64,000 nt of DNA. It comes from Anaeromyxobacter sp. Lineage in GTDB: Bacteria; Myxococcota; Myxococcia; Myxococcales; Anaeromyxobacteraceae. This document shows, piece by piece, positions 3,619 to 45,584 of this stretch; the stretch's first letter is position 1; each line of letters begins with the position of its first letter. The stretch covers positions 128,001 through 192,000 of the forward strand of contig JASGJN010000004.1 in the NCBI GenBank assembly GCA_049840735.1, written 5' to 3'. The position numbers were made by a program, and so were the translations under genes. Below the pieces are notes generated by a model. The model saw only the letters and a program-made list of their open reading frames with translations. It was not told where the DNA came from and made no database searches.

Positions 3619-4854
3619 ATGGGGCAGTGTGGGGCCGCCGTGCCGACCCCGGAACCCCAGGACCACGCCGCCCGCCGCCTCACCCACGGCATCCTGCCCG
3701 CGGTCGCCTTCTCGCTCGTCTGCTACCTGACGGTCGGGCTGGCGCTGGCGGTGCTGCCCACGCACGTCCACCTGCGGCTCGGCTTCGGCACGGCGCTGGC
3801 GGGCCTGGTGGTGAGCGCGCAGTACGTGGCCACCGTCCTCTCGCGCCCGCTGGCCGGGCGGCTCACCGACACGGCCGGCCCGCGCCGGGCCGTGCTGCGC
3901 GGCCTGGTGGCCTGCGGCCTGAGCGGCGCGCTGACGCTGGCCGCCGCCCCGCTCGACGCGCACCCCTGGGGCGCGCTGGCGCTGCTGCTGGCCGGCCGGC
4001 TGGCGCTGGGCGTGGGCGAGAGCCTGGTGGCCACCGGCGCCATCATGTGGGGCATCGCCCGCGTCGGTTCCCGGCACACGGCGCAGGTGATCTCCTGGAA
4101 CGGCATCACCACCTACGGCGCGCTGGCGGTGGGGGCGCCGCTGGGCGTCGGGCTGGCGGCACTGGCCGGGCTGGCCGCGGTGGGCGGGTTCGTGGTGCTG
4201 GTGGCGGCCGGCGCCGGGGTGGCGGCGCGCCGGCTGCCGCCGCCGGCGGTGGTCCACGGCGAGCGCATGCCGTTCCACCGCGTGGTGGCCCGGGTCGCGC
4301 CCATGGGCCTGGGGCTGGCGCTGGGCGGCACCGGCTTCGGCGTGATCGCCGCCTTCATCACCCTGCTCTACGCGCACCGCGGCTGGAGCGGCGCCGCCTT
4401 CGCGCTCTCCGCCTACGGCGCCTGCTTCATCGCCACGCGCCTGCTCTTCGCGCACCAGATCGACCGGCGCGGCGGCCTGGCGGTGGCGCTGCCGTCGCTG
4501 GCCGTGGAGCTGGCCGGGCTCCTGCTATTGGCCTCGGCCGGCGGGCCGGGCGCGGCGCTGGGCGGGGCGGCCCTGACCGGCCTCGGGTTCTCGCTGGTCT
4601 TCCCGGCGCTGGCGGTGGAGGCGGTGCGGGGCCTGCCCGCCGAGGACCGCGGGACGGGGCTGGGCGCGTACTCGGCCTTCGTGGACCTGTCCCTGTTCGT
4701 GAGCGGCCCGGCCGCAGGGGCGCTGATCGCGGCGCGCGGCTACGCGGCCGGCTTCCTGGGCGCGGCGGCCGCCGTGGGGGCGGGGCTCCTGCTCACCGGC
4801 TGGCTGGCGCTGCAGGCCGGGCGGGCGCCGGGCCCGGGACCTCACCCACCGTGA
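3619..4854 (+). CDS. MFS transporter (YhhS/YfcJ-like)
   Basis: About 12 hydrophobic helices, motif A GRLTDTAGPR, and the ISWNGITTYGALA and GFSLVFPAL segments typical of this subfamily. Confidence 0.88.
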   Translation: MGQCGAAVPTPEPQDHAARRLTHGILPAVAFSLVCYLTVGLALAVLPTHVHLRLGFGTALAGLVVSAQYVATVLSRPLAGRLTDTAGPRRAVLRGLVACGLSGALTLAAAPLDAHPWGALALLLAGRLALGVGESLVATGAIMWGIARVGSRHTAQVISWNGITTYGALAVGAPLGVGLAALAGLAAVGGFVVLVAAGAGVAARRLPPPAVVHGERMPFHRVVARVAPMGLGLALGGTGFGVIAAFITLLYAHRGWSGAAFALSAYGACFIATRLLFAHQIDRRGGLAVALPSLAVELAGLLLLASAGGPGAALGGAALTGLGFSLVFPALAVEAVRGLPAEDRGTGLGAYSAFVDLSLFVSGPAAGALIAARGYAAGFLGAAAAVGAGLLLTGWLALQAGRAPGPGPHPP

Positions 4855-4977
4855 CTCCCCCGAGGGGAGGATGAGCCGCGCGCCGTTCACGGCTGGTGAT
4901 GGTCGCCGGCCACCCACCCCGGGAACGGCCCCGGCCGCTCCCGCCTCGGGCTAGACTGGGCGCGGGGTCTCCCCGAC

Positions 4978-6735
4978 ATGCCCGCCCCAGTCTCCACCCC
5001 CGCGGTAGACGTCCAGGAGCTGGCCTGGCGCGCCTGGGCGCTGCGGCTCTCCTACCTGATCCTGGGCGTCGGCGTGGCGGCGCCGGCCCTGGCCCACAGC
5101 CTGGTGGCGGGCAACGCCTGGATGGCGGCGGCCCTGCTGGCTGGGGCGCCGCTGGTGGCGGCGGGGGCGATCTGGGGCGGGCGGGCCGGCCGCTTCCGGG
5201 CCTGGTCCGGCCTGCTGCTGGTGATGGTCGGGGCGGTGCCGGCCATCGGCATGGCCGGGGTCGGCCCCACGCCCGGGATCTGCGCGGGCCTGACCACGCT
5301 GGTGGTGCTGGCGGCGCTGTTCCGCGGCCGGAGGGCGGCGTGGGCAGCGGTGGCGCTCCAGACGCTGGTGCTGGCCTTCACGCTGGCGGGCGGGGAGCTG
5401 GGCTGGCTCCCCTGGCCCTCGACCCCGCCCGGCGACTGGTCCACCTCGGCGCTCTGGGCCTGGTACCTCACCCACCTGCTGGCGCTGGCGCTGGTGATCG
5501 CCATCCCGCCGCGGGTCATGGCGGACCGGTTCGAGCAGTTCGCGGCCGATCGCGAGGCGGCCCACCGCGAGGCCGACGAGGCGCTGGGCTCGCGCGAGCG
5601 GGCGGAGCAGGAGCGGAGCCAGGCCGAGGCCGCGCTGGCGCAGGCGCAGCGGGGCGCGGTCATCCAGCGGGTGGGCGCGGCCCTGGCCCACGACTTCAAC
5701 AACGCCCTGGTGGTGATCCGCTGCTCGGCCGAGGCGCTGGCCGACCCGGCCGCCTCCCCGGAGATGCGCGCCGAGGCGGGGGACGCCATCCTGGCCTGCG
5801 CGCGGCGCGCCTCGGCGCTCACCCGCCAGCTCATGCTGCTGGCCCGGCGCGCGCCGCCGCCGCCGGGCGCGCGCACCCCGGCGGACGTGGGGCGGGTGCT
5901 CCAGGAGTCGAGCCGGCTGTTCCGGCAAATCCTCCCGGCCGACGTGCAGCTGGAGGTGCTGACGGCCGGCGCGGCCCCGGCCGCGCTGGACGAGACCGCG
6001 CTCACGCAGGTGCTGCTCAACCTGGTGCTGAACGCCCGCGACGCGCTCCCCCGCGGCGGGCACGTGCGCATCAGCTCGGAGCCGGTGCCGGCAGCGGGGC
6101 CACCCAGCCACGTGCTGCTCGAGGTGACCGACGACGGCGCGGGCATGACGCCGGAGGTCCGCGCCCACGCCTTCGAGCCGCTCTTCTCGTCCAAGGCGCA
6201 CGGCGCCGGCCTGGGGCTGGCGGTGTCGCTGGCCCTGGTGCGGCAGGCCGGGGGGGACCTGGCGCTCCGCTCCGCCCCCGGGGCGGGCACCACCGTCACC
6301 ATCACCCTGCCGGCGGCGGCGCAGCCGCGGGCCGCCGCCCCGCGAGCGCGGCCGCAGGCGCCGCCGCGCGGGGCGCGGGCGCTGGTGGTCGATCCGGACG
6401 AGGGGCTGCGCCACGTGACGGCCCTGGCGCTGCAGGCGCGCGGCTTCTCGGTGATGGAGGCCGGGGACGCGAGCGCCGGGCTGGAGCGCGTGCGGCGGCT
6501 GCACGACCGGCTGGACCTGATCTGCCTGGACGTCTCCGAGTTCACGCCAGGTGCGGCCCGGCTGGCGGAGGAGTGCGCCGCGCTCTTCCCGGAGGTGGCG
6601 CTCCTGGCCACCGGCTCGGTGGCGGAGCCGGGCGTGGCGCAGGCGCGGAGCTTCGCCTTCATCGCGAAGCCCTTCGTGGCCTCCGACCTGGCCGAGCGCG
6701 CGGTGGGGCTGGTCGCGCGGGAGGGGAAGGCGTGA
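4978..6735 (+). CDS. Hybrid sensor histidine kinase (multi-TM sensor, HisKA/HATPase, atypical receiver)
   Basis: Hydrophobic N-terminus, AHDFNN H-box, NLVLNARDA, DDGAGM, GAGLGL, and a C-terminal REC-like domain ending in AKPF. Confidence 0.88.
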   Translation: MPAPVSTPAVDVQELAWRAWALRLSYLILGVGVAAPALAHSLVAGNAWMAAALLAGAPLVAAGAIWGGRAGRFRAWSGLLLVMVGAVPAIGMAGVGPTPGICAGLTTLVVLAALFRGRRAAWAAVALQTLVLAFTLAGGELGWLPWPSTPPGDWSTSALWAWYLTHLLALALVIAIPPRVMADRFEQFAADREAAHREADEALGSRERAEQERSQAEAALAQAQRGAVIQRVGAALAHDFNNALVVIRCSAEALADPAASPEMRAEAGDAILACARRASALTRQLMLLARRAPPPPGARTPADVGRVLQESSRLFRQILPADVQLEVLTAGAAPAALDETALTQVLLNLVLNARDALPRGGHVRISSEPVPAAGPPSHVLLEVTDDGAGMTPEVRAHAFEPLFSSKAHGAGLGLAVSLALVRQAGGDLALRSAPGAGTTVTITLPAAAQPRAAAPRARPQAPPRGARALVVDPDEGLRHVTALALQARGFSVMEAGDASAGLERVRRLHDRLDLICLDVSEFTPGAARLAEECAALFPEVALLATGSVAEPGVAQARSFAFIAKPFVASDLAERAVGLVAREGKA

Positions 6736-12570: not shown

Positions 12571-13011
12571 ATGGACATCAGCTTCCGGCCTGCGGTCGCG
12601 GCGGACGAGCCGGCAATCCGGGCGCTCCTGCAAGAGGCCGGGCTCCCGGTGGAGGACCTGTCGCTGAAGCGGCAGGACCTGCTGCTGGCGGTGCAGGGCG
12701 AGCAGGTGGTGGGCTGCGCCGCGCTGGAGCGGCACGGGGCGGACGCGCTCATCCGCTCCTACGCGGTGGCGCCGGCGCTGCGCCGCCACGGGCTGGGCAG
12801 CGCGCTGCACGAGCGCATCCTGGCCCACGCCGCCGCCTGCAAGGTGGACACGGCCTGGCTGCTCACCACCACCGCCGCGCCGTTCTTCGCGGCCCGCGGG
12901 TTCGAGCAGGTGGACCGCCGCGCCGCCCCGCGCTCGGTGGCCGCCTCCCCCGAGTTCAAGACGCTGTGCCCGGCCAGCGCCGTCTGCATGCGGCGGTCGC
13001 TGGCCCGCTGA
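12571..13011 (+). CDS. GNAT N-acetyltransferase (ArsN2-like)
   Basis: GLPVEDL, VGCAALE, RRHGLG acetyl-CoA motif, LLTTTAAPFF, EFKTLCPASAVCM. Alternative start at 12565. Confidence 0.85.
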   Translation: MDISFRPAVAADEPAIRALLQEAGLPVEDLSLKRQDLLLAVQGEQVVGCAALERHGADALIRSYAVAPALRRHGLGSALHERILAHAAACKVDTAWLLTTTAAPFFAARGFEQVDRRAAPRSVAASPEFKTLCPASAVCMRRSLAR

Positions 13012-13042
13012 GCCCACCCTTCCCCCGCAGCGCGGAGGCCGC

Positions 13043-14221
13043 GTGATCCTGCCCACCCTGCCCTCGCGCCGCCGCCTCCTGCGCGGCGGCGCCGTGCTGG
13101 CCGTGCTGGCCGTCGCCTGGGTCCTGCGCGAGCGCGCCGTCCAGCTGCTGCCGCCCGACTACGACGAGGACGACTACCTGCGGGCGGGCCAGCAGTACGC
13201 GGTGGGGCTGCAGGCGCACGATCCGGGCGTCTTGGTGCGCGAGAACTACCGCCCCGAGCACCCGCAGCTCATGAAGCTGCTCTACGGCGCCGCGCTGACG
13301 CCGCTGCCGCCGGTGGCGGAGATCCCCGACCGCCCCACCACGGCCGAGCCGGACAAGGGCCTCCCGCCGGTGCACCTGCGCGCCGCGCGCCAGGTCTCGG
13401 CGGTGGCCGGCACGCTGGCGGTGGGGCTGGCCGCCTGCCTGAGCCTGGTGGGCGGCGTGCTCCTGGCGCTCCACACCTTCACCATCAAGTACAGCGCGCA
13501 GGTGCAGCTCGAGGCGGTGCCGCTCCTGGCCAGCGCGCTCTGCGTGGTGGCCTACGACCGGTCGCGCGTGGCCGCCACGGCACGCTGGAGCGGCTGGCTG
13601 CTCCTCTCCGGCGCGGCCCTGGGGCTGACGGCCGCCAGCAAGTACCCGTTCGCCATCGTGGGGCTGGTGGTGCTGGTGCACTGGGCCGGCGCGCGCTGGC
13701 TCGCGCGCGGCGCGCCCAGCCCCGGGCGCGCCTGGCCGCTGTTGCTGGGCTGGGGCGGGCTGGCCGTGGCAATCTTCCTGCTGGTGAACCCCTGGCTCTG
13801 GCCGGATCCGCTGGGCAGGCTGGGGAGCTCGTTCGCCTACCACTTCGGCTACGCCCACAGCCCGGCCGTGCAGAAGGCCGCGATGCCGCCCTGGCAGCCG
13901 GTGGCGTGGCTGGTCCGCTCGGCCGCCGGCTGGCACAAGGGGGTGTTCCTGCCCGGCGCCGACGGCGTGGACCTGGCGTTCACGCTGCTGGCCTTCGCCG
14001 GGCTGCCGCGGCTCGGGCGCGAGCGGCCGCTCTACCTGCTCTGGATCGGCCTGGCGCTGGCGTTCCTGTTCGTGTGGCCCACCAAGTGGCCGCAGTACGT
14101 GCTGCTGGTGGTCTTCCCCTGGTCGCTCGCCGCCGCCGCCGGGCTGCGCGAGGTGCTGGCCTGGGCGGGCGCCGGGGTGCGACGGCTGCGGGAGGCGCCG
14201 GTCGCGCCGGGCGGGACCTGA
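13043..14221 (+). CDS. Polytopic membrane protein, probable GT-C/PMT-like glycosyltransferase
   Basis: Acidic DYDEDDY after the first TM helix, EHPQLMKLLYG, GLTAASKY, and many TM helices. Confidence 0.55.
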   Translation: MILPTLPSRRRLLRGGAVLAVLAVAWVLRERAVQLLPPDYDEDDYLRAGQQYAVGLQAHDPGVLVRENYRPEHPQLMKLLYGAALTPLPPVAEIPDRPTTAEPDKGLPPVHLRAARQVSAVAGTLAVGLAACLSLVGGVLLALHTFTIKYSAQVQLEAVPLLASALCVVAYDRSRVAATARWSGWLLLSGAALGLTAASKYPFAIVGLVVLVHWAGARWLARGAPSPGRAWPLLLGWGGLAVAIFLLVNPWLWPDPLGRLGSSFAYHFGYAHSPAVQKAAMPPWQPVAWLVRSAAGWHKGVFLPGADGVDLAFTLLAFAGLPRLGRERPLYLLWIGLALAFLFVWPTKWPQYVLLVVFPWSLAAAAGLREVLAWAGAGVRRLREAPVAPGGT

Positions 14222-14379
14222 GCCCAGGGGTACGGCGGGACCCCGGGCGCGCACGTACTCAGCGCCCGGGTAGACGGATCGACCCGGCGCCTGGGCTTTC
14301 CCGCGGTGTGGCCAGGTATCGGGGATGCAGCACAGGTCTCGGCGCCCAGGTGGGCGTACGTCCTTCACGAGGTGCCTCC

Positions 14380-16957
14380 ATGCTCCAGCGCGTCTCCCTC
14401 TCCACCGCCGTCCGCGCCCTGGCCCTCATGGCCATCGGCGGGCTGGTGGCGGTCGTGCTGCTCACCTGGCTGCCCATGCGGTCGGTGCAGGTGAACGGCG
14501 CGCTCTACCGGGAGATCGCCGCCGCCCAGCAGCTGGAGGCGGACGTGCTCCCGCCCCCGCTCTTCCCGCTGGAGACCTACGCGGTGGCCCTCGACCTGGT
14601 GGCCGCCACCGACGTGAACCGCGAGCGGGAGCTGGTGGCCCGCCTGGAGCAGGCGCGCGCGCCGTACGAGGCGGCGGCGAAGCTGGAGCTGGAGGCCGGG
14701 CACGACGCGGAGACCCTGCGCGTGCTGGAGCAGGCGGTGGCGGACGGGCGGAAGTTCTACACCGCCATCGACGCGCTGCTGGCGGCGGTGAAGCACTCCG
14801 ACGCGGGGTTGCGGGCCGCCGCCGACGAGCAGCTGCGGGCCGCGTTCGCCGAGCTCACCAGGACGGTGACGCCGCTGGTGGAGCGGACGCACGCCCGCGC
14901 GGCCGAGCTTGAGGCCGAGGCCGACCGGCGCGTGCGCAACGTGATGATGGGCGTGGTCGCCACGCTGCTGGCGGTGCTGACGCTGGTGGTGGCGGCCGCG
15001 CTCGTGACCTCGCGGGCCGTGCGCCTCTCGATCCGCGCCCTGCAGGAGGAGACCGCGCGCCTGCAGGCGGCGGTGACGGCCGGGGCGCTCACCGAGCGGG
15101 CCGAACCGGCGCTGGTGCACCCGGACTTCCGCGGCGTGGTGGAGGTGCTGAACGGCACCATGGACGCCTACGGCGCGCCGCTGGCCGACCTCGGGCGGAC
15201 GCTCACCAGCATCGCCGCCGGCGAGGTGCCCGAGGCCATCACCGCCGCCTACCGCGGCGACTTCGAGCGGCTCGAGGAGGACCTGAACGCCGTGGCCGCC
15301 ATGATGGCCCGGCGCGCCGCCGAGCTGGACGGGCTGGTGGCGGCGGCCGCCGCCGGCCGGCTCAGCCACCGCGGCGACGCCAGCGGGCTCGCCGGCGGGG
15401 ACCAGCGGCTGATCGCGGGCATGAACCAGCTCATGGACTCCGTGACCGGCCCGCTGCAGACCACCGCCCAGGCGGTCGCGGCCATCGCCCGCGGCGAGAT
15501 CCCGCCGCCCGTCGCCGAGACCTGGCAGGGCGAGTTCGAGGGGCTGCGCCTGAACCTCAACACCTGCCTCGGCTCGGTGCGGGCGCTGGTGGAGGACACC
15601 GCGCTGCTCACCCGCGCCGCGCAGGCCGGCCAGCTCACCACCCGGGTCTTGAGTACCGGGCCGTCACCAGGGCGACTTCCGGACCATCGTCTCCGGCGTC
15701 AACGGCACGCTGGACGCGGTGGTGCGCCCGGTCACCTCGGCCGCCAGCTGCGTGGCGGCCATCGCCCGCGGCGAGCTCCCGGCGCCCATCACCGAGCCCT
15801 GGCCGGGCGACCTGGCCACCCTGCGCGAGAACCTCAACACCTGCCTGGCCGCGGTCAACGCGCTGGTGCGCGACGCGGAGGCGCTGGCCGCCTCGGCGGT
15901 GGCCGGCGACCTCTCCCGCCGCGCCGACGCCAGCCGCCACCAGGGCGACTTCCGCCGCGTGGTGGAGGGCGTGAACGCCACGCTGGACGCGGTCATCGCG
16001 CCGGTGAAGGAGGCGTCGGGGGTGCTGGAGCGGCTGGCCCACCGGGACCTGCGGGCGCGCATGCCCGGGTCGTTCCAGGGCGACCACGCGCGCCTCCAGG
16101 AGGCGGTGGACACCACCGCCGAGGCGCTCCATGACGCGCTGCTGGCCGTGCAGGGCGCGGTGGAGCAGGTGTCGGGCGCCGCGGCCCAGATCGCCTCGTC
16201 CTCGCAGGCGGTGGCCTCGGGCGCCTCGGAGCAGGCCGCCTCGCTGCAGGAGACCGGCGGCGCCGTGGAGGCGGTCACCGAGACCAGCACGCGCTCGGCC
16301 GAGCACGCGCAGCAGGCCAGCCTGCTGGCCGGCACCGCGCGCGGCGCCGCCAGCGAGGGGACCGCCGCGGTGGAGCGGCTGCAGGGGGCCATGCAGCGGA
16401 TCCGCGCCGCCGCCGAGGGGACCAGCGCCATCATCCGGGACGTCTCGGACATCGCCTTCCAGACCAACCTGCTGGCGCTCAACGCCGCGGTGGAGGCGGC
16501 CCGCGCCGGCGAGGCCGGCCGAGGCTTCGCGGTGGTGGCCGAGGAGGTCCGCTCCCTGGCCCTGCGCGCCAAGGAGGCGGCCTCGCGCACCGAGGCGCTG
16601 ATCCGGCAGTCGATGCAGGAGGCGGGCGAGGGCGAGCAGGCCGCCGCGCAGGTCTCCGGGCGCCTGACCGACATCGCCGGGGCGGTCTCGAAGGTGCACG
16701 CCATCGTGACGGAGATTGCCGCGGCGGGGAAGGAGCAGGCGGCCGGCATCGCCCAGGTGAACCGGGCGGTGGGCGAGATGGACAAGGTCACCCAGCAGAA
16801 CGCCGCCAGCGCCGAGGAGTCGTCCTCGGCGGCCAGCGAGCTGTCGAGCCAGGCCGAGCAGCTGGCGGCGCTGGTGGGCGGCTTCCAGCTGGAGCGGCGG
16901 GCCGGAGAGGCGGTCCGGCGGACGCGGCGCGCGCTGGGGCCCGCGCCGCGGGAGTGA
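14380..16957 (+). CDS. Methyl-accepting chemotaxis protein with poly-HAMP region; frameshift near 15650-15662
   Basis: Two TM helices, repeated HAMP-like units (xQGDF...N..LD), and the signalling hairpin [34 protein letters not shown]. The frame changes within a garbled stretch where the parallel repeat predicts R.DA.RHQGDF. Confidence 0.88.
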
Positions 16958-32415: not shown

Positions 32416-32805
32416 ATGACGGAGCAGGAGCGGACGCGTTGGACGAGGCTGGTCGCAGACTTCGAGGCAAGCGACCTCACGCAGCGGGAGTTCGCGACGG
32501 AGCGCGGGGTCTCGTTCAGCAACCTGCGCAACTGGCTGTACAAGCTTCGCAAGGAGTCCCGGCCCCTGCAGCCGGAGCCGCCCAAGGTGCCTGGTCAAGC
32601 CCCTGAGTCGGGCGCCCGCGCCGACGGGCTCGCGTCTGGTGCCGGTCCGTGTGGTAGCGTCCGCGGCGAAGCCGCGGACCTCGGTGGTGGCGGGTGAGCC
32701 GGGGGCGAGATGGTCCGAGATCGCGCTCCTCTCCGGCGTCCGGGTGCGCTTCCCCCCGTCGGCACCGATCCCAGGTACGTGCGCTCGCTGGCGGCGGCGC
32801 TGTAG
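32416..32805 (+). CDS. tnpA: IS66 accessory protein TnpA (frameshifted as sequenced)
   Basis: W..LVADFEASDLTQREFATERGVSFSNLRNWLYK HTH, followed across frame changes by RLVPVRV and SGVRVRF. Confidence 0.75.
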
Positions 32806-32808
32806 GCC

Positions 32809-33170
32809 GTGATCGGGATCCCGCAGTCGGTCCGCATCCTGATCGGCACCACGCCCATCGACATGCGGAAGTCGATCGACGGCCTCACCGCCATCGTGCA
32901 GCAGGAGATGAAGGAGGATGCCTACTCGGGCCACCTCTTCATCTTTGTGTCGCGGCGGCGCGACCGGGTGAAGATCCTGGCGTGGGACAAGGGGCGGCTT
33001 CGTGCTCGTCTACAAGCGACTGGAGCGCGGCCAGTTCAAGCTGCCGCACATGGACCCGTCCACGATGGCCGTCGAGATCGGACGCCACGCAGCTCGCGAT
33101 GCTGCTCGACGGGATCGACTTCGGCCGCGTCGGGCGCCCCAATCACTGGAAGCCCCCATCCCAGATTGGA
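32809..33170 (+). CDS. tnpB: IS66 accessory protein TnpB (frameshifted as sequenced; end approximate)
   Basis: PIDMRKSIDGL...SGHLFIFVSRRRDRVKILAWD, then YKRLERGQF, then QLAMLLDGID, in shifting frames. Confidence 0.85.
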
Positions 33171-33227
33171 TCTTCCGGGTCGTCGTCCCATGGACAAGCC
33201 CCGCCGCGCCGTGATCTACCGTCGTCA

Positions 33228-34775
33228 GTGAGCGGCGACGATCATCACTGTGCGTGGCGCGAGCCGGGCGGAGGCCCTCGAGGGCGAGCTCGCCGCGCTT
33301 CGTGCCGAGCACGCCGAGACCGTCGAGCAGCTCGCCGCCGTCCAGGCCACCATCGAGTAAGGCTGCAGCGCCACGTCTTCGGGAAGCGGTCAGGAGAAGA
33401 TGCCGTCCGTCGCCAAGGCAATCCGCGATCCGGGCCCGCGCCGAGGCGGAGCGGCTCGCGGCGCTGCAGACCCGGCGCGAGAACGCGAAGAAGAAGCGCC
33501 AGCCTCGTCACCCGCACCCGTCGAGCACAAGGTGCCCGAGGAGAAGAAGGCCTGCCCGAAGTGCGGCGGCCGCGAGTTCACCACGCTCGGCGACGGCAGG
33601 GAGACGGTGATCTACGAGCTCGTCCCCGCCATGGTGGAGCGCCAGCTCTCACGTCCAGGAGAAGTGCCGACTGCCGGTGCGGGGAGACGATCATTCACGG
33701 CGGGAGGGGCCGGCCAAGGTCTTCGACAAGACGCGCTTCGGCCCCACCTTCATGGCCCAGGTCGCCGTCTCGAAGTGTACGCCGGACCTCGCTGCCGCTC
33801 TACCGGCAGGCGAAGGCGTACCGCCGCGTCGGCGTCCAGGTGGACGACTCGACGCTGGGCGATCTCTTTCCACCGAACCGCCGAGATCTTGAACCCGCTC
33901 TATTGAGCGGCTGCTGTAAGCTCGTCTCCGAGAAGCGGAGATCGTGCTCGCAGACGAGACGACCCAGCGCGTGCAGGCGAAGGGGAAGACGCGGACGGCC
34001 TGGCTGTGGAGCTTCATCGGCCGCGACGAGCTCGAGAGCGAGCTCATCGGGCCTACGTCTTCGCCAACAGCCGATCCGGCGAGACGGCCGGTGAAGGTGC
34101 TCGGGGAGACCGAAGGCAAGCTCGTCGCCGACGCGTACAGCTGGCTACAACAAGGTGAGCAAGCCGGGCCAGCGCGAGCGCGCGGGGTGCCTCGCCCACG
34201 TCCGGCGCTACTTCTTCGACGCGCAGTTCGGCGGCGCCCGAGGCGGCAAAGCAGGCGATTGCGACGCTTCATCCGCTGGATGTCTACCGGGTGGAGCGCG
34301 CCGCGGCTCGACGCCGATCTGCTCGGCACCCCCGAGCATCTCGAGATGCGCCAGACGAAGAGCAAGGCGATCATGGACGCCTTCCACGCCTGGCTGCTCA
34401 CCGAACAGGGCCGGCACCCTGCCCCGTGGCGCGATGGGCGAGGCCATTCAACTACACCCTCGGCCAGTGGGGACGAGCTCAACCTCTTCCTCACGGACCC
34501 GCACCTCCCCATCGACAACAATGCCTCCCGAGCGCGCCCTGCGGGTCGCCGCGCTCGGGCGCAAGAACTTCCTCTTCGTGGGCACGGATCACGCCGGCGA
34601 GAACCTGGCCGGCCTCTACTCGCTCATCGCCACCTGCGAGGTGAACGGCGTCCAACCCCGTCGGCTCTACCTCGCCGACGTGCTCCTCCGCGTCCAGACT
34701 CACCCGGCCTCGCAGATCGACGAGCTGCTCCCGCACCGCTGGAAGCCGCCCCCCGAAGCCCAGCCGTCGGCCTGA
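33228..34775 (+). CDS. tnpC: IS66 transposase TnpC (multiple frameshifts as sequenced)
   Basis: Fragments FGKRS, CPKCG, LPLYRQ, ADET, LVADAY, GCLAHVRRYF, PIDNN, ERALR...GRKNFLF, IDELLP. Confidence 0.88.
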
Positions 34776-34949
34776 AGCTGGTCGGCGGCGAACACGAACA
34801 CCATCAAGGAGAGCCACGGGCCCGCGGTCGCGCGGGCTGCCTGGAGTGCTACGTCAAGACGTCCATGCCCGGGCGGTTACCGCGCGCGGGCCCCTCACTG
34901 CCGGCGGCTGGATGTGCTCACAAGGGACTCGCCACTCAGCCTCGAAGGC

Positions 34950-35719: not shown

Positions 35720-36323
35720 TTACAGGCTGCAGGCACCGGGCGCGACCCCGCTCGGATGAGGGACTCCCTTCCCGCCATTGTGTTTCCAGCCGCAATTGTG
35801 CGCAAACTCATGAACCAAGACGTCCGCAGAGCAATTCGGCTTGACGCGATTGCACCAGGTCACCTTGCACGTCCCTGGGCCTCCTGCACAGGCGTTGACC
35901 CGCGCACTGCCGTCATCGCAACACGCCGGGTCCGGCTCCTCTGGACACCTGAGATGGGCATGCTCGTTTTGCTTCAGGATGCACTGCTTCAAGTTGACGT
36001 CCGTAACGGCGTCGGCCGCCATTATCACGTCGGTCTCCTTGGGCAGGCCGAGGCAGGCCCTGTCCTTCGTGAACAGGCCAAAGCGATCCGTGTACTTCAG
36101 CGGATTCCCACTCCCATAGCTGTACCAGTCCACCCCGTAGTCGGAATTGAACTCGCCATCGAGCGCAATCGGGTCCGGCTCCAGATACCTCCCCACGCCC
36201 GGCAGATACCACCTGTTCCAGTTGTAGTACGGTCCCTGAAGCCCCAGGCTCCCGAGCAGCCGCTCGTCGTACTGCCCGGGCAGACGCAGGTTCGTCACGA
36301 CCGCGCCAGCGGAGGGCGTGTCC
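35720..36323 (-). pseudogene. 5'-truncated RHS repeat-associated core with C-terminal HExxH toxin domain
   Basis: NLRLPGQY...YYNWNRWY.PGVGRYLEPDP...YSY...NPLKYTDRFGL core, then a Cys-rich tip with LVHEFAHNCGWKH. The 5' end abuts the TGT terminus of the mobile element. Confidence 0.9.
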
Positions 36324-36368
36324 TGTGCCGCGCCGCCGGAGTCAGCCGTTTGATCCGGCCTCAATCAC

Positions 36369-37457
36369 CTAGCATCCGCCTCCCCGTTCGCAGCGCAGGT
36401 AGCCGCGCTTCGTCAGCGCCCACTCGATGGCGAGGCGCTCGGCCATCGCCGCGGTCGCGCCGCGGCCTTCCACCTGCCGCCTGATCCGGGCGGCGCGGTC
36501 CTGCACCTCCTCGCGCAGCGCGTCCCGGTCCTCGTGCAGCTCCGGGCGCGCCTGCCAGGCCTCCTCGCTCGTGCGCCAGCCCAGGTTATGCCTTGGCCAG
36601 GCGCCGTTCAATGCCAGCAGCATCTCCTCCGCACAGCCTTTCGAGGTCGCCTTCCGGGATTGCGCCGTCCTTTTGCAAAAGAGCCATTCGCGGTGCTCCC
36701 GGTTCTGCCGCTCGAGCTGGCCGTAGTAGCCCGGGTGGCCGCGGCGGGCCCTGCAGCAGCAGGACCTTGTGGCGCCGCAGCACGTCCATCACCTCGCCTG
36801 TCCTGTGGCACTTGGCCCGGTCAGCCCGTAGCACCAGCGGCGCCCCGTGGGCGGCGAAGTCCTGCTCCAGGGTGTCAGCCACGGCGTGGCCGTCGTAGGC
36901 CGGCACCACCGCGGCGGTGGTGCGGTACGGCAGGGCGGCGTCGGCCGCCACCAGGGGCGAAGCGGCGCCCGGCGGTGGTGGCGAGGTGCATGGCGTCGAA
37001 GCCGCGGACGGCGCCAGCGGCGGTGACCTCCACGGTGGCGCTGGCAGCCTTGCGCTCCCGCTCCATCGCGGTCAGCGTCTCGTGCTTCACGGCCGCCGCC
37101 TGGCGCCGGGATACGCCCCGGCACGGCGTGCCGGATGGCCTCGGCGCCGACCAGGCCGCGGAGGCTGCGGACAACGGCGGCGACCTCGGCCTTGAGATCG
37201 AGGCGGATCGGCGCGGCCGCCGGAGCGGGCGGCTCTCCCGCTGCCAGTTGCTTGCGCCAGCGCGCCACCGTGGCCGGACTCGCGTCCACCAGCGCGCACG
37301 ACAGCGCCGCCGGCATCCCGGCCTCCCTCAGCGTCCGCTCGGCCTCGAGCCTCATCAGGATCTCCGCACCGTCGGGCTCATCGCCCTCACCGCCACCGCC
37401 CGGGCGGCTCTTCCTGGGCCGCGAGGTCCGCACCCGGGTATGCACCACCTGGCTCAT
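36369..37457 (-). CDS. Second DDE/integrase-core-like protein (frameshifted as sequenced; may be fused to the upstream HTH ORF)
   Basis: Reconstructed across frames: ASPATVARWRK HTH, VRGFDAMHL (D), ALVAADAA, HGAPLVLRADRAKCH (D), GPPRHPGYYGQLERQNRE (E), LNGAWPRHNLGWRT. The stop codon lies in the terminal repeat. Confidence 0.7.
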
Positions 37458-37459
37458 CG

Positions 37460-37778
37460 CTCCGGAAGATCCGGTCGATCATCTCCGCCCGGGTCTGGAG
37501 CTTCCGGTTCTCCCGCCGCAGCTCCTCCAGCTGGCGCTCCAGCTCCGCCTCCCGCTCCGGCTTCGGCTGGCGCCCCGGAGCGCTCGGGGTCACTCCCTCC
37601 ACCATCCCCTTGAGCCCCCTTGTGCAAGAGCGTCTGGAAGTGGTTCCGCGGACAGGCCCAGCTTCCGGGCTCCCTCGCTCACCGACAGCTCCCCCGACAT
37701 CACCGACAGCATCGTCCCCAGGCGCTCCTGCAGCTCCGGCGGCACCTCGGGCGCGGGCTCGTAGGTCTTCTTCGGCAT
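37460..37778 (-). CDS. HTH plus coiled-coil protein (IS3 OrfA-like architecture; 3' end uncertain)
   Basis: GAGGAG RBS; MPKKTY...MLSVMSGELSVSEGARKLGLSRNHFQTLL...PGRQPKPEREAELERQLEELRREN, with one frame change. Confidence 0.65.
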
Positions 37779-37841
37779 GGGCGCGCTCCTCGGACCCAGC
37801 GTCACACGCCGCGATCTCGCCCGCGAGTTTCCGATCCCACC

Positions 37842-38352
37842 TCAGGGCGCGACCGCGCCACCCGTCCTCGGGGTCGAAGCCTGGCCGGCCTCCCCCTTCT
37901 TCGTCACCGAGCCGCTCGAAGGCTTCGCGCCATCCTTCGTCGAGCTGGGCCGGCCCAGACCCGGCAACGTCACGCGCCCCTTCCCCAGCAGCTTCCGCGT
38001 CATCAGCAGGAGCCGCTCCCGCTCGCCGCTTCTCCTGCTCCAGGCGCTGCACCTTCGTCTCCAGCTCCGCGATCTTCCGGTCCTGGCTCGGCGGCCGCCC
38101 CGGCTTCGTCGCCGGCGTCGGCGACAGCGCCTCCAGCATCGCGTTCGAGCGCCCAGCTCCTCCAGCTGGTAGTACCGGCCCCGCGACAGCTTCGCCTCCG
38201 CGATCGCGTCCGTCACCGGCGCGCTCCCCCGACAGCACCGACAGGACCAGCAGGCAGCGCCGCCTGGCCATCTCGTCCAGCTCCTGCCGCGTCTTCAGCC
38301 ACCTGGGCACGGGTCGCGGCCGGTGCCGCCTCGATCGCCTCGTCTCGCTCAT
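37842..38352 (-). CDS. HTH plus coiled-coil protein, paralog of the downstream ORF (frameshifted as sequenced)
   Basis: AAGGAGGAGG RBS; VLSVLSGE..VTDAIAEAKLSRGRYYQLE...AMLEALSP...PGRPP...KIAELETKVQRLEQEK. Confidence 0.65.
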
Positions 38353-39535
38353 GGACGCCCTCCTCCTTCAACGGGATGGTCTGCTCCTCGCCGCCCACGT
38401 TCACCCGCAGCCCCTCTGCGCTCGCCGCGATCGAGAGGTCCCGATCGCCCAGCCGGCCCACCAGGTAGAAGGGCTTTAGTGGCGGCTTCTCCTTTGCCAG
38501 CCGCAGCGCGTTGGCCTGCACGCTCCGCTCCACCGCGGCACGCACCTGCGGTGCCGCCTGGAAGAAGCGATCCGCCGGCACCAACCCCGCCAGCGCCTGG
38601 TGCGGCCGCCTGGAAGTTGTACCCGTCGATGAAGAGCCCGATCCGCCGCGCGCAGTCGGCGAAGTCCGAGAAGACCGTCCGGGACAACAGCTCGTCCCAT
38701 AGCGTCTTCCAGAACCGCTCGACCTTGCCCAGCGTCTGCGGGTGCTGCGGCCGGCTCTTCACGTGCCGGATCCCCCTGCCGCCGCAGCTCCCCCTCGAAC
38801 TCCGTCGTCCCGCGCCACGCCGTGTACTGCCGGCCCTGGTCCGTGAGGATCTCCCCGCGGCGCGCCCGTACACGCCGCGATCCCGCGGTTCCAGCGCCTC
38901 CATCACCAGCCCCGACCGCTGGTGGTGCGCGATCGCGTGCGACACCAGGAACCGCGAGTGGTCGTCCATGAACGCGGCCATGTACAGCCGCTCGTGCCGC
39001 CGCAGCAGGAACGTGAAGATGTCCGATCTGCCACAGTTCGTTCGGCTGCGCCCGCTCGAAGCGGCGCTCCGGGTGATCCCTCGGCCCCGCCGGCTCCTTC
39101 TCCTCGATCAGCCCTTCCTCGTGCAGGATCCGCCGAACCTCGTGCTCCGACACGCCCAGCGACTGGAACCGCCCCAGCAGCTGCGAGATTCGCCGCGTCC
39201 CGAACTCCGGGTGCTCACCGCGAAGCTCCGTCACCGCCACCCGCTTCGGGTCCTCGGGATTGCTCGTCTTGCCCGGCCGGCCCAGGTTCGGCTTTGGATC
39301 CAGCCCGGCCATCCCATCGGCCTTGAACCGCTCCACCCAGGTACGCAGGGTCGTGAGCGACAACCCGTACAGCCCGGGCCACGTGCGTGATGGGCACCTG
39401 CTTGTCCACCACCTGCCGCACCGCCCGCAACCGGAACGCCAACGGGTGGATCCTCGGGTTCCCCGCCGAGCCGCTCCGCCGCACCCCACCGCGTCCGTTC
39501 CCGGACCCGACCTTGTCCTTCGTTCGCTTGCTCAT
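38213..39535 (-). CDS. IS481-family-like DDE transposase (frameshifted as sequenced)
   Basis: AAGGAG RBS; HTH LSLTTLRTWVERFKADG, HPEFGTRRI, RFERAQPNELWQ.DIF (D), DDHSRF, ILTDQGRQY (D), HPQTLGKVERFWKTL (E), YNFQRPHQAL, PADRF. Confidence 0.88.
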
Positions 39536-39633
39536 CCGTCGCTCCTTCTCGGCCGCTGCGTCAGCGTCCGAGGGCGACGGGTGCTAGGTCATCAAATGGG
39601 GGAGCAAACGCTCATCCGGTGGCGCGCGGCACA

Positions 39634-42166
39634 CCGATCGACGCGCCGCTGGGCTGGTAGACGACCAGGGTGGCGCCGTAGTTGGTGAAGCCCGAGGCCA
39701 AGGTAGCGCGGAGCGTGAAGCGCTGCCCAGCCGTGCCGCTGAACGTGTAGCGACCGGCCTGGCCTGGACGCGAGGTCTCAAAGCGGGTCACGGCGCCGGT
39801 CGTGGCGAGCGTTCCCGTCAGCCCGGTGGAGAGCATCACGGAGAGGGAGGTGGCCGAGGTGCCCGGCGGATTGACCACCAGCGTGTAGGTGCCGGTCGTC
39901 GGGAGCTGGCCTGGCTGCCAGCTCGTCGCAGTCGCGACGAGCGAGCTGCTCCAGAGCGAGGTCCCATCTGGCTTCAGGATGGAGAGGTTGGTGGTGCCTC
40001 CCGGCGTGGTGGTCACCGACGTCACCGCGAGGCCGAGCCAGTCGCCAGCGTTGCCGCTGAAGGTGTAGCGGCCGTTCTGGGCGGCGGAGAGGGTCACGCC
40101 CTGGGCTGGGCTTCCGATCGAGAGCGTGCCCGCGGCGCCTTCAATGAGCGTCAGGTCGATTGCGCCGGTCTTGATCCCGCTGGGCACCACCGAGACCGTG
40201 TAGGTGCCGGTCACTGGCAGCGCGCCCAGGTCCAGCTTCTGGTCCGTGGAGGTCGAGAACGTGGTGCTGGCGATGGTGGCGCCGCTGGGCTGGTAGACGA
40301 TGACGGTCGCGCCGGAGGTGGTGAAGCCCGAGGCCATGGTGGCGCGGAGCGTGAAACGCTGTCCCGCCGAGCCGGTGAACGTGTACCGGCCGCTCTGTCC
40401 AGGCCGCGCGGGTCTCGAACCTGGTCACGACGCCGCTGGCGAGGCCTCCCGCGAGCGCCTTGGAGACGAGGATCTCCGTCGACACCATCACGGCGGCGCT
40501 GGGCTGCGCCACGAGCGTGTAGGTTCCCGAGGACGGCAGCGCAGGCAGCTGCCAGCTGTTGACTGCGTTGGCCGTGGCGCTCCAGACGGTCGCGCCGCCG
40601 GGCGCGAGCACCTTCAGGGAGGTCGAGCCTGCCGGGGAGGCCGCGTAGCTGGTCAGCGCCAGGCCCAGCAGGTCACCGGCGCTCCCGGCGAACATGAACC
40701 GGCCCTGCTGGCCGACCGTGGCGTTCGAGAATGGGGTGGAGTCCCCGTCGACGATCAGCATCCCGACGTCGGGGGTCGACAGCAGGCAGGTGACCGTGCC
40801 GCTCGCGACGCCCGACGGCGTGAGCGCCAACCGGTAGCTCCCGGCCGCGGCGAGCGCAGGGAGCTGCGCGCTGGTCGGGCCGGAGAAGGTGCTGCTCCAC
40901 AGGTTCGTCCCGGTGGGCCCGTAGAGCCTCACGCCGAGGGTGCTGCCGGCCGGGGCCAGCGAGAGCGCGCTGCACCCCAGGCCCAGGAGATCGCCGGCCG
41001 CTCCGCTGAAGGTGAAGTGGCCATTCTGTCCCGGCGCGAACGACAGGGTGGCTGGTGCCTGGCCCTGGGTGAGGGCGGCCACCGCGTTGGAGAGGCGCTG
41101 CACGGCGGCGGAGCCCGTGGCATTCGCGCCGGGCTCGAGCACCACCATGTAGCCTCCCGTGGTCGGAAGCGCCGGGAGCGTGTGCTTCGTCGAGGCGGAG
41201 GGCGTGATTGTCCCGGAGTAGATGACGTCGCCTGCCGGGGCGAAGACCTTCAGCGAGGTCGAGCCCGGGTAGGTCACGTTGCCCACGAAGAGGGTCACGA
41301 ACTCGCCAGCGGTCCCGTCGAAGGCCAGGAACGCGACTCGCTGCGCCGTGGTGGTCGTGGCGGTGACCGGCTGCGTACCGGAGAGGACCCCGGTGAACTC
41401 GACGTCCGCTGCCTCGTAGCCGCTGGGAAGCTTGAAGAACGTCCCTGCGCTCACGCCGGTGCCTCGCGCATTGGTGACCACGATCTGGCCCGTGGCGGCA
41501 TCGGTCGTGAGCTGGGCGTTGAGCGTGTTCTGGGATGCGGTCCGAACCGTGACCACGCCGGTCCCCACTCGGACGGTGTTGCCTGACGGCGTGCCGTCGA
41601 AGTTGAAGCCGGTGATGGTGATGGAGTCACCGCTGCGGCCGATCTTGGGCCAGAAGTCCGTCACCTGCACGTCGGTGATGACGGAGAACGCCGCGACGCT
41701 CGTGGCCACCTGTCCCTGCGAGGAAACGGAGATCGGTCCACTCGCCGCCCCTTCGGGCACCACAATGGTCAGGCTGGAGGAGGTGGCCGCGATCGGTGTG
41801 ATGTGGGAGCCACCCAGCGTGACAGTGTCCAGCGCGGGCGACGGCGAGAAGCCGGTCCCGTGGACGGTCACGACCTGCCCGATCCCGCCGGCGCGAGGGC
41901 TGGAAGTCCGAGACCGAGAGGGAAGCAGCGGACGAGGCGGTGATGGAAATGAGGTTTCCGGCTCCGTCGTACTCGTAGGCCACGGCTTCGCCGGACTCGG
42001 CGCTGCTGGCGGTCGCGGTAACCGGTGGAGCGGGCTGCCGGGGCGGCGCTGGGTCACGCCCACAGCCGCTGATCAGCGGAATTCCCGCGAGGAGGGTAAC
42101 CAGCAGCCCACCCGCGAACGCTCGCAACGCCGCCTCATTCGGCGGATTCGATGGTCTTGCGGCCAC
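39634..42166 (-). pseudogene. 3'-truncated surface protein: lipoprotein-like signal, YD repeat, two IPT/TIG domains, repeated PPC-like beta domains; frameshifts near 41895 and 40410
   Basis: LISGC, YEYDGAGNL, GQVVTVHGTGFS and GDSITITGFNF IPT repeats, and at least five F.G.AG.......LP.TGTY units. The last repeat is cut at the ACA end of the element. Confidence 0.8.
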
Positions 42167-43575: not shown

Positions 43576-44810
43576 TCAGGCAGCGCGGCGCGCCTGCAGG
43601 CGCCCGGCCAGGTGGTCGACCAGGTCGCGCGCGTCGGCGCCGACCCCGTCGAGGAAGGTGGAGTTGCGGCGGCGCAGGAACGGCAGCCCCAGCACGTAGA
43701 GGCCGGGGGCGGGCGTGACGCCGCCCTCGTGGATCAGCTCGCCGCGCGCGTCGAGCACCGGTGCGTGGAGCCAGGGGTAGCTGCGGCGGTAGCCGGTGGC
43801 CCAGAGCACGGTCCGGATCCCCTCGGCCGCCAGGTCGAGGCGGGCGGGTGTCCGCACCGGCTGGACGGGCGGCCGGCGCTCCGGCGAGGCGGCCGCGAGC
43901 CTCTCGCGCTCCGCGAAGTCGTCGATGCGCGCCAGCACCCGCTCCAGCCGCCGCTCGGCGTCGGCCACGCTGGCCAGGAGATCGTCCGCCAGCGCCAGCC
44001 GGCCGCCGTCCACCCCCGCCAGCCGCCCGGTGAGCCGGATCCCCATGGCCTGCAGCGCCGCCAGGTCCAGCGTGCGGTGGTCGGGGCGGCCCACCAGCTG
44101 CGCCGAGGGCTGGGCGCGGGCCGCGGCCAGGTCGGGGACCGCCGCGGCCGGCTCGGTGAGCAGGCCGGCCCGGTCCATCCACCAGAGCACGTCGTGCCCG
44201 CGGTAGCGCCGCGGCAGCCGCGTGTGGCGCCCCACCGCCAGCGTGACCGGCCGGCCGGACGCGTGCAGCTCCGCCGCCAGCTGCACGCCGGTGGCGCCGG
44301 CGCCCACCACCAGCACGCCGCCCGGCGGCAGCGACCCGGGGTGGCGGTACTCGGTGGGGACCACCTGGAGCAGGCCGGGCGGGAGGGCCGCCGCGGCCGC
44401 CGGCACGCGGGCGTGGTGGGCGTGGCCGGTGGCGACCACCACGGCCAGCGCCCGCCAGCCGCCGGCGTCGGTTCCACCCTCCAGCCGCCACCGCCCGGCG
44501 CGACCCGGGTGACGGTGACGCCCTGGTGCACCGGCGCCCCGAAGGCGCGGGCGTAGCCCTCCAGGTAACGGACCACCTCCGCGCGCGACATGTAGCCGTC
44601 GGGATCCGGCCCGCGCCAGCTCCAGCCCGGGAGGCGCGACTGCCAGCGCGGGGTGAGGAGCCGGAGCGAGTCCCACCGCTCCGAGCGCCAGCGCTCGCCC
44701 ACGAACCCGCGCTCCAGCACCACGTGCTCGATGCCGCGTCCGCCCAGCAGGTTGCTGGTGGCCAGGCCGGCCTGCCCGCCCCCGATCACCACCACGTCCG
44801 TCCGTCGCAT
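43576..44810 (-). CDS. Flavin-containing monooxygenase-like oxidoreductase (CzcO/TrkA-like); frameshift near 44473
   Basis: IGGGQAGL, WRSERWDSLRLLTP, VVATG, VGAGATGVQLAAEL, WATGYR, GVGADA. One base is missing at WRVE-TDAG. Confidence 0.87.
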
Positions 44811-44966
44811 GTTCTGCCTCCACAGGGGCCTCGGACCTCAGGCTTCGGGCCTCAGGCTCGGGGCGCCAGCGCTTCTTCACCGCGTCCTCGTCCTTGCGTC
44901 CTGCGCCGGCCGCGCGACGCGCGGGGCCGACCCCATCCGGCGGCCGGCCCCGCGCCGCGGCCGCGT

Positions 44967-45584
44967 TCACCCCGCGTCCACCGCGATCATCACCGGCACG
45001 CCGCGGGTGAGGACGTCGTAGACGGCCGACCGCGCCCGCGACTGGTCGACGATGGCGCGCAGCACCTCCGGCGAGGCGTCGCCCTTGATGCGGAAGCTGA
45101 CCCGGAGCTGCTCGTAGCCGTTCCGCACCTCCGTCGACTGGCCGAAGATGCCGCGCAGGTCGATGTCCCCCTCCACGGTGGACTCCACCTCGTAGAGCGT
45201 CACCCCGCGCGCGGCGGCGATGTTGCCCACGCCGGAGGTGATGCAGGCGGCCAGCGCGTGGAGCAGGAACTCCACCGGCGTGGGGCCGTGGTCGCGCCCC
45301 ACCAGCACCGCCGGGTGGTCGGCGTCGAAGGTGAAGGCGCGCTGGTGACGCTGCGGTCCGCCGGCGCCCTCGAAGGTCTCGAGGGTGGAGCGGCTGTGGG
45401 TCCCCTGCTGCCAGTGGTTCACGGCGCGGAAGCGGAAGCGCGCCAGCTGGGGCTGGGCCTTGACCGCGTCCAGCGTGGCGAAGAGCGTGGGCGTGTCGAC
45501 GCCGTTCATGGGCCGCACCTGGCGGGCGGGCTTCATGGAGGCGGCGGTCGGGGTCTGCATCTCGGTGTTCAGCTCGGTCTGCAT
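44967..45584 (-). CDS. OsmC family protein
   Basis: NGVD...FRFRAVNHW..GTHS, ADHPAVLVGRDHGPTPVEFLLHALAAC, EGDIDLRGIFG, SAVYD. Confidence 0.9.
   Translation of the reverse strand: MQTELNTEMQTPTAASMKPARQVRPMNGVDTPTLFATLDAVKAQPQLARFRFRAVNHWQQGTHSRSTLETFEGAGGPQRHQRAFTFDADHPAVLVGRDHGPTPVEFLLHALAACITSGVGNIAAARGVTLYEVESTVEGDIDLRGIFGQSTEVRNGYEQLRVSFRIKGDASPEVLRAIVDQSRARSAVYDVLTRGVPVMIAVDAG

Follow-up and report, generated by a model that had tools for sequence, protein, structure and literature searches.

An apparently undescribed transposon family with two DDE transposases in Anaeromyxobacter and other bacteria

A 64,000-nucleotide stretch of the genome of Anaeromyxobacter sp. (assembly GCA_049840735.1, contig JASGJN010000004.1, positions 128,001 to 192,000; hereafter the window) contains a 3.3-kb element that is almost certainly a single mobile unit carrying two transposases. 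The element encodes a long DDE transposase of the IS481 type (A), a small helix-turn-helix (HTH) and coiled-coil protein (B), a conserved peptide in the tail of A (T), and a second DDE transposase (CD), in which an HTH-zipper module, C, is joined to a catalytic module, D. To our knowledge, and in keeping with the literature searched, a bacterial DDE transposon relies on a single catalytic protein, alone or with helpers; no matching two-transposase layout was found in that literature, which takes in few of the subscription journals. In kind the element is a member of the IS481/IS3 superfamily of insertion sequences (ISs), yet it does not fit IS481, IS3, IS1202, IS21 or Tn7, and the family is apparently undescribed, by a comparison that lies outside the ISfinder catalogue. 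Annotation pipelines obscure it by calling A a long "IS481 transposase" and CD a hypothetical or transposase-like protein. A natural family with two DDE paralogues offers a direct way to test whether the ends or the steps of transposition can be split between enzymes, and it bears on why some ISs lack target duplications and lie at large deletions. A natural heteromeric, duplication-free integrase, if that is what the family provides, would also be of interest to genome engineers.

A single mobile unit

The element of the window is bounded by imperfect inverted repeats that start with TGT and enclose co-oriented coding segments, as a preliminary description of this DNA had reported; the two ends match at 44 of the first 60 columns of a gapped alignment, and an ungapped repeat finder recovered just the inner 21 nucleotides. 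The motifs that had been named for A, B, C and D were all located again on the minus strand, scattered over frameshifted pieces, and the stop codon of D (36371-36369) does lie within the repeat on the 36324 side. The host genome (G000; 6.67 Mb in 26 contigs) holds a second full copy (G000:C22:349452-352773) with identical boundaries, unrelated flanks and 91% identity to the window copy, which indicates that the unit is genuine and has transposed in its entirety. Elsewhere in that genome no solo end was detected. Between the two copies there are 245 substitutions and 43 indels, of which 41 are not multiples of three, and we infer that the frame-breaking indels are long-read assembly errors, with decay as the alternative. 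Ordinary genes of the window, such as that at 43734-44970, are likewise split by frameshifts, which fits an unpolished long-read assembly.

Conservation of gene order was scored at 94 loci, 80 from metagenomes and the remainder from genomes, two of them duplicates. A, B, T and CD were all found, in that order, at 73; of the other 21, 19 start too near CD to hold A (contig start) and two lack only a hit to T. A search of 251 genomes anchored on A returned seven matches, every one adjoining CD, and 12 of the 14 splits in the A tree with support of at least 0.95 recur in the D tree, with no strong conflicts (38 loci). The view that this is one multi-component element, not a set of nested ISs, is thus sustained by the ordered loci, the agreement of the trees and the company that A keeps; neither A nor C-D was seen alone within repeats of its own, the arrangement that had been named as a sign of nesting. 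Members occur in at least 8 of 401 genomes of the host phylum, and the names of the source organisms include Anaeromyxobacteraceae, Archangiaceae, Polyangiaceae, Deltaproteobacteria and Thermoanaerobaculia. As far as such names show, the family is widespread in uncultured bacteria of soil and sediment type; no CD match at E 1e-8 was found in 72,556 plasmid or 50,697 phage records.

Table 1. Features of the element and its flanks (window coordinates)
Feature	Position	Strand	Description
Whole element	36324..39633	coding all minus	TGT at 36324, ACA at 39633
Left end (ORF-upstream)	39580..39633	-	TGT tip with a CCA box, a middle box (TGAGCG) and an inner box (CTAGC); consensus drawn from 43 distinct ends
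ORF A	37387..39535	-	IS481-type DDE transposase; broken by single-base indels in this assembly
ORF B	37842..38352	-	HTH + coiled-coil protein, ~175 aa; own ribosome-binding site; +1 frame inside ORF A
T peptide	37819..37947	-	conserved motif LD..W....L ... FDPD.GWR.RAL.WERKLAG, A frame, between B and CD
ORF CD	36369..37778	-	second transposase, ~467 aa; HTH-zipper module C joined to HTH-HTH-DDE module D
Right end	36324..36375	+	TGT tip; relative to left end, CCA box shifted 2 bp and CTAGC box 1 bp towards tip; includes CD stop codon
Right-end flank, outside element	35720..36323	-	Rhs core end + C-terminal domain, co-oriented, 5' part missing; TIGR03696 E 4e-12
Left-end flank, outside element	39634..40337	-	repeat-rich gene (Ig-like by eye), cut near 3' end
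ORF, open reading frame; aa, amino acids.

The two transposases and their paralogous modules

Third codon positions vary more than first and second positions in both enzymes. The core of A (~385 aa) comprises an HTH-HTH-DDE-beta domain arrangement with catalytic codons near 39023, 38841 and 38720; its intact homologue at locus L018 clears the NCBIfam IS481 model NF033577 (229.5 bits vs a cut-off of 224), and the triad D169/D228/E268 is invariant in 36 of 36 aligned sequences. In CD, the catalytic codons lie near 36997, 36822 and 36713, and the triad D262/D320/E356 is invariant in all 57 aligned sequences. Homologues of CD are numerous (1,268 at E<=0.001 among 8,000 scored candidates with a length limit of 256-818 aa; 237 cluster representatives at E<=1e-30), and 113 of 120 have all three motifs, with a D-to-E spacing of 36 in 103. 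The best profile match of D is again the IS481 model, at 65 bits, under the cut-off. The AlphaFold model of CD (predicted local distance difference test, pLDDT, 85.5) matches retroviral integrases, IstA (8b4h) and TnsB (7svw), with a best E of 1.5e-9, so that the proposal of an integrase-like D with a triad of its own is borne out by the predicted fold, whose absence would have told against it.

Profile alignment places the core of A colinearly on the D part of CD (hhalign 89%, 19% identity) and B on the C part (hhalign 98%), the latter in line with the similarity previously noted between B and C; the element therefore holds a pair of IS481-type paralogues and a pair of HTH-zipper paralogues. 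Four ORFs, as counted in the preliminary description, occur in distant subfamilies only. In the subfamily of the window there are three, C and D being a single frame in the C22 copy and in full-length homologues, and the intact relatives L002 and L018 having three ORFs; the C/D break of the window, near 37465, stems from one additional base that the C22 copy lacks and is most likely an assembly indel.

An overprinted tail on ORF A

ORF A had been thought to end before B, at ~390 aa. It instead extends to ~720 aa, the additional ~340 residues forming an acidic tail (D+E 20%, K+R 12%), predicted to be disordered, that is overprinted on B and C. At 67 of 73 loci this frame runs without a stop from the core, across B, as far as T; the six exceptions (five distinct loci) resemble single frameshifts. 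Among 50 non-redundant loci (<85% CD identity, from 61 passing the filters, and related to one another, not independent events), the A frame has no stop in 11,074 codons, 4,700 of them over CD codons 1-95 and 6,374 over B; unlike the count over C, that over B is zero partly by construction, because loci with a stop there had been filtered out. As controls, the same phase over the A core has 131 stops in 16,091 codons and the frame over D has 159 in 15,650, or about one per 100. Four-fold degenerate sites in B and C are barely more conserved than elsewhere (0.46-0.48 vs 0.50-0.58), and the constraint on the overlap is thus mostly stop avoidance. Homologues of A found independently, in a search that could return no protein shorter than 392 aa, tell the same story: 111 of 120 are at least 650 aa long and 109 carry T. 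Gene overprinting of this kind, a same-strand overlap of ~330 codons retained across many lineages, is rare in bacteria.

The invariant R, K and L residues of T are written with many synonymous codons, from which we conclude that T is protein-coding in the A frame. The same variation rules out T as a DNA or RNA motif, and no Rfam match was found in L018 or L021. Expression of T from a start of its own is excluded as well (a start codon with a ribosome-binding site in 0/50 loci), as is frameshifting from B, slippery heptamers occurring in only two of 50 loci, both near the B start and none near T. The AlphaFold model of full-length A is poor (pLDDT 51.7, the tail mostly <50), and the docking of T on the core is unreadable from it. 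At 39 of 50 loci the CD frame has an ATG close to the stop of A, in 15 cases with a ribosome-binding site (counts for which no chance level was computed), so that coupled synthesis of D alone is possible on this sequence evidence. Two other fates for the end of A were set aside, namely a third-frame ORF downstream of the stop (median ~21 codons) and a programmed A-D fusion, which is unsupported, the stop ranging from CD codon 95 to 167 in contexts that are not shared. No sigma-70 promoter or terminator match was found in L018.

Ends and target sites

Both ends are visible at 50 loci (43 distinct), 3,215-3,473 bp apart. The TGT tip, CCA box, middle box and inner CTAGC box are common to both ends. 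In nearly all members the CCA box of the left end lies 2 bp deeper, and its inner box 1 bp deeper, than at the right end; for the inner box the position is 47 at 37 of the 43 left ends, against 46 at all 41 right ends scored.

None of the 44 loci flanked on each side by 10 or more bases has a target duplication of 4-80 bp (85% identity); shorter direct matches at the insertion were absent at 32 loci and amounted to 1 bp at eight, 2 bp at three and 3 bp at one. The flanks of these 44 loci have no sequence consensus. Two individual loci have longer similarities between their flanks, an inverted one of 121 nt (69%) at L039 and a 62-nt direct repeat (94%) at L090 that does not touch the ends.

Because short-read contigs may join the flanks of different copies, occupied sites were compared with empty ones. 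For the window copy, the flanks point to positions ~4.4 kb apart in a paralogous Rhs locus on contig C13. For L018, two of six relatives separate them by 3.0 and 3.8 kb, and the other four show one flank only. At L119 the spacing to both neighbouring genes is as in three relatives, with a divergent spacer that prevents resolution to the base; this insertion is a clean intergenic one that lost little or nothing. Duplication-free insertion thus needs no large deletion, although large deletions are common.

Models for the mechanism of transposition

We tentatively favour a heteromeric transpososome in which one DDE enzyme serves each end; the element would be an autonomous IS that needs both paralogues. 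A and D would pair, each binding and joining one end, and the zippers of B and C, with the T peptide on the flexible tail of A, would hold the complex together, in a manner that may be likened to the zipper pairing of OrfA with OrfAB in IS3 elements. The two active sites would not be fixed at a stagger of 4-15 bp, and the ends would join the target bluntly or at separate positions. Such freedom would leave no duplication, sometimes little loss and often a kilobase deletion. The model draws on synteny, co-phylogeny, the invariance of both triads, the colinearity of D with the A core and its integrase fold, the end asymmetry, the missing duplications, the empty-site comparisons, the open A frame with its T peptide and the four-module relatives with A-runs between C and D.

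Several points weigh against a heteromeric complex of this kind. An end asymmetry of 1-2 bp occurs in single-transposase ISs too. Many of the flanks come from short-read contigs and are possibly chimeric across copies, as flanks shared between copies suggest. The long tail is missing in the distant relatives L174 and L175 and B is missing in L170, so that neither can be universally required. The A frame stays free of stops for ~150 codons downstream of T, and it is open in L127 as well, where T is lacking; a tether role leaves this openness unexplained. Deletions can also follow ordinary insertion, according to the available part of PMC11708052. In the like-for-like comparison, the enrichment of Rhs genes next to the element is not significant (7/53 vs 0/26 loci, p=0.09). 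Finally, the two-enzyme mechanism is argued from sequence. We regard as unlikely the bolder proposal of a "two-handed" transposon whose two DDE enzymes, on a long overprinted tether, would insert the ends independently and up to kilobases apart, replacing target DNA rather than duplicating it, and which in predatory and soil bacteria would hollow out Rhs genes to yield orphan toxin-immunity modules.

A somewhat unlikely alternative is that the labour is divided by step and not by end: one enzyme would make a figure-eight or circle (copy-out), the other would integrate the abutted-end junction or resolve the intermediate, and B and the A tail would switch between steps. The IS3/IS481-type domain layout of both enzymes and the retention of both triads, which this scheme requires, are as expected, and the two-step pathway does need one asymmetric and one symmetric reaction (PMC7780238, excerpt). 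Integration by a symmetric homodimer, however, normally leaves a fixed duplication, which none of the 44 loci has, and the fixed asymmetry of the ends is left unaccounted for. A second alternative, to which we attach little probability, is insertion into pre-existing DNA breaks or rearrangement intermediates, for example at recombination-prone Rhs genes, with one enzyme processing the ends and the other capturing broken DNA without a staggered cut. It would account for absent duplications, deletions of variable size and many Rhs flanks, and insertion at breaks has been proposed for IS481 and IS5 (PMC11708052, in the portion available); the clean intergenic insertion at L119 and the diverse, consensus-free non-Rhs flanks speak against it. 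Equally improbable in our estimation is an ordinary insertion whose short duplication was later erased in nearly every copy by element-driven adjacent deletions, the second transposase mainly raising intramolecular activity or regulating A. Adjacent deletions commonly remove duplications, as the same paper states (PMC11708052), and around the element several Rhs genes are reduced to a short 5' piece and a 3' remnant, but erasure must then have occurred in 44 of 44 copies, including L119 with its relative-like spacing. Chance nesting, or a composite of an IS481 with an IS3-like element, for which one could cite that A alone passes the IS481 model and that C-D is OrfA-OrfB-like with A-runs at its junction in relatives, is largely refuted and very improbable, given the absence of solo ends in the host genome, the uniform order of all 73 scorable loci, 67 of them with locked frames, the congruent A and D trees and the physical overlap of the A frame with B and C.

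Comparison with known families

By family models and published descriptions, the element falls outside IS481, IS1202 and IS3, the three families with which comparison had been suggested. With IS481 it shares TGT...ACA ends, an A that passes NF033577 and, in D, the same domain order; it differs in its two DDE enzymes plus B, its ~720-aa A with an overprinted tail and its length of 3.3 kb. IS481 elements normally have a single transposase ORF, whereas three ORFs and two DDE triads are present here. Target duplications in IS481 range over 2-15 bp and are mostly 6 bp (PMC10045372, available part), in contrast to 0/44 loci with one of >=4 bp.

The likeness to IS3 elements (IS911, IS2, IS1447) resides in C-D, an OrfA-OrfB-like arrangement of HTH-zipper followed by DDE with 35 residues between D and E. 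C and D are fused here, and A-runs lie at the junction in L127, L174 and L175 as candidate frameshift sites; the +1 phase of L127 may be compared with the +1 slippage described for IS1447 (PMC6211511, excerpt). Unlike IS3, the element adds a full transposase, A, and a second OrfA-like gene, B, within the same ends, its CD and A score 47 and 159 bits vs an IS3 cut-off of 160, and it lacks the 3-5 bp target duplication. IS1202 elements, as far as the accessible text of their description goes, have TGT ends, up to three conserved boxes and HTH and DDE domains, with a single ORF of 400-500 aa, a length of 1.3-2.0 kb and duplications of 5-29 bp (bioRxiv 2022.12.17.520857). The TGT ends with conserved boxes and the HTH and DDE domains are shared, but the element spans 3.2-3.5 kb and scores 81 bits with NF033594, where 250 is required.

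Tn7 employs TnsA and TnsB, and IS21 employs IstA and IstB. The element resembles both in its TG...CA ends, multi-protein transposition and the fold of D, as matched to IstA (8b4h) and TnsB (7svw), and differs from them in that its two enzymes are DDE paralogues, with no TnsA-type nuclease; no match to an AAA+ helper ATPase (IstB/TnsC) was found in A, B or CD. In piggyBat, protomers take different roles on divergent ends and an engineered heterodimer works (bioRxiv 10.64898/2026.07.15.738711, from the part available), but this is one eukaryotic protein with a man-made heterodimer, and the parallel is an analogy only.

Distant relatives

More divergent members show that the constant of the family is its two DDE enzymes, with B, the tail and T being elaborations. 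L127 (G401:C672:1-3296) encodes A (46% identical), B, C and D in four separate ORFs and has no T; across B and C its A frame meets no stop in 223 codons (vs 7/353 over D), and it closes where C and D adjoin, at an A8 run in the +1 phase. Its ends keep the middle box, and the apparent left end begins with TGA. L174 and L175 (G090:C177 and C75) have a short-tailed A followed by B, C and D, with an A8 or A9 run at the C/D junction in the -1 phase; comparison of T with this short tail (E 0.11-0.14) gives a hint only. In this four-module subfamily, with which L171 and L172 are grouped, the right end overlaps the last codons of D; A-like genes in the same genome stop at contig ends. L170 (G090:C183:1-3525), a 3.5-kb contig starting with TGT, encodes an A-like protein and a second DDE protein but has neither B nor an overlap. 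That second protein, of 627 aa, has a long helical C-terminus, and the right end is off the contig.

Other IS481-model matches were encountered beside the family. At L155, L157, L158 and L166-L169 the gene that comes next is, by eye, an ExeA-like AAA ATPase, which marks a separate multi-gene transposon that is common in the phylum. The host genome itself has two IS481-model matches of equal score, at G000:C14:99540-100340 and C17:53529-54329.

Rhs loci and other flanking genes

Both genomic copies adjoin the end of an Rhs core. Among 53 usable loci, Rhs flanks were recognized at seven by NCBIfam models, nine by any tool and 12 when by-eye calls are added, against none at 26 other IS481-like loci (77/98 flank pieces scanned), giving p values of 0.09, 0.026 and 0.007, respectively, of which only the NCBIfam comparison is like for like. 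The control is weak: it was drawn from genomes instead of metagenomes, and part of the control flanks fall within larger elements. A local, insensitive tblastn for Rhs gave 5/55 test loci, 0/28 controls and 4/400 random windows.

The element is co-oriented with Rhs in 9 of 9 tool-supported cases and in 12 of 13 with by-eye calls (one with a flank of <200 bases), whereas the non-Rhs flanking genes are diverse and point both ways. At L041, L083, L087, L122 and L123 (partly by eye), the element lies between a short 5' piece and a 3' piece or probable immunity gene. Most likely the co-orientation reflects selection for read-through to the downstream immunity gene, since translation across the element would let transcription reach that gene; targeting, which this explanation does not need, is less likely. 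At both genomic copies the right end is fused in frame to an Rhs tip, but the phases are mixed at other loci, and a role for such fusion was rejected.

A few further observations concern individual loci. In the right flank of L123, a 210-codon YD-repeat fragment stops abruptly at a second junction, suggesting more than one deletion there. The paralogous repeat-gene and Rhs locus of the host genome (L017, G000:C13:722000-738000) is nearly complete; by eye, its neighbours are an ISAs1-like transposase (4115-5353) and a further DDE transposon (13000-15000). A second Rhs locus (L136, G000:C22:353000-373000) lies 16 kb downstream of the C22 copy, and its core end is 70% identical to the right flank of that copy. 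In the window, a heavily frameshifted IS66-like element (32416-34800; TnpA/TnpB/TnpC-like by eye) is located 1.5 kb away, beside the Rhs remnant.

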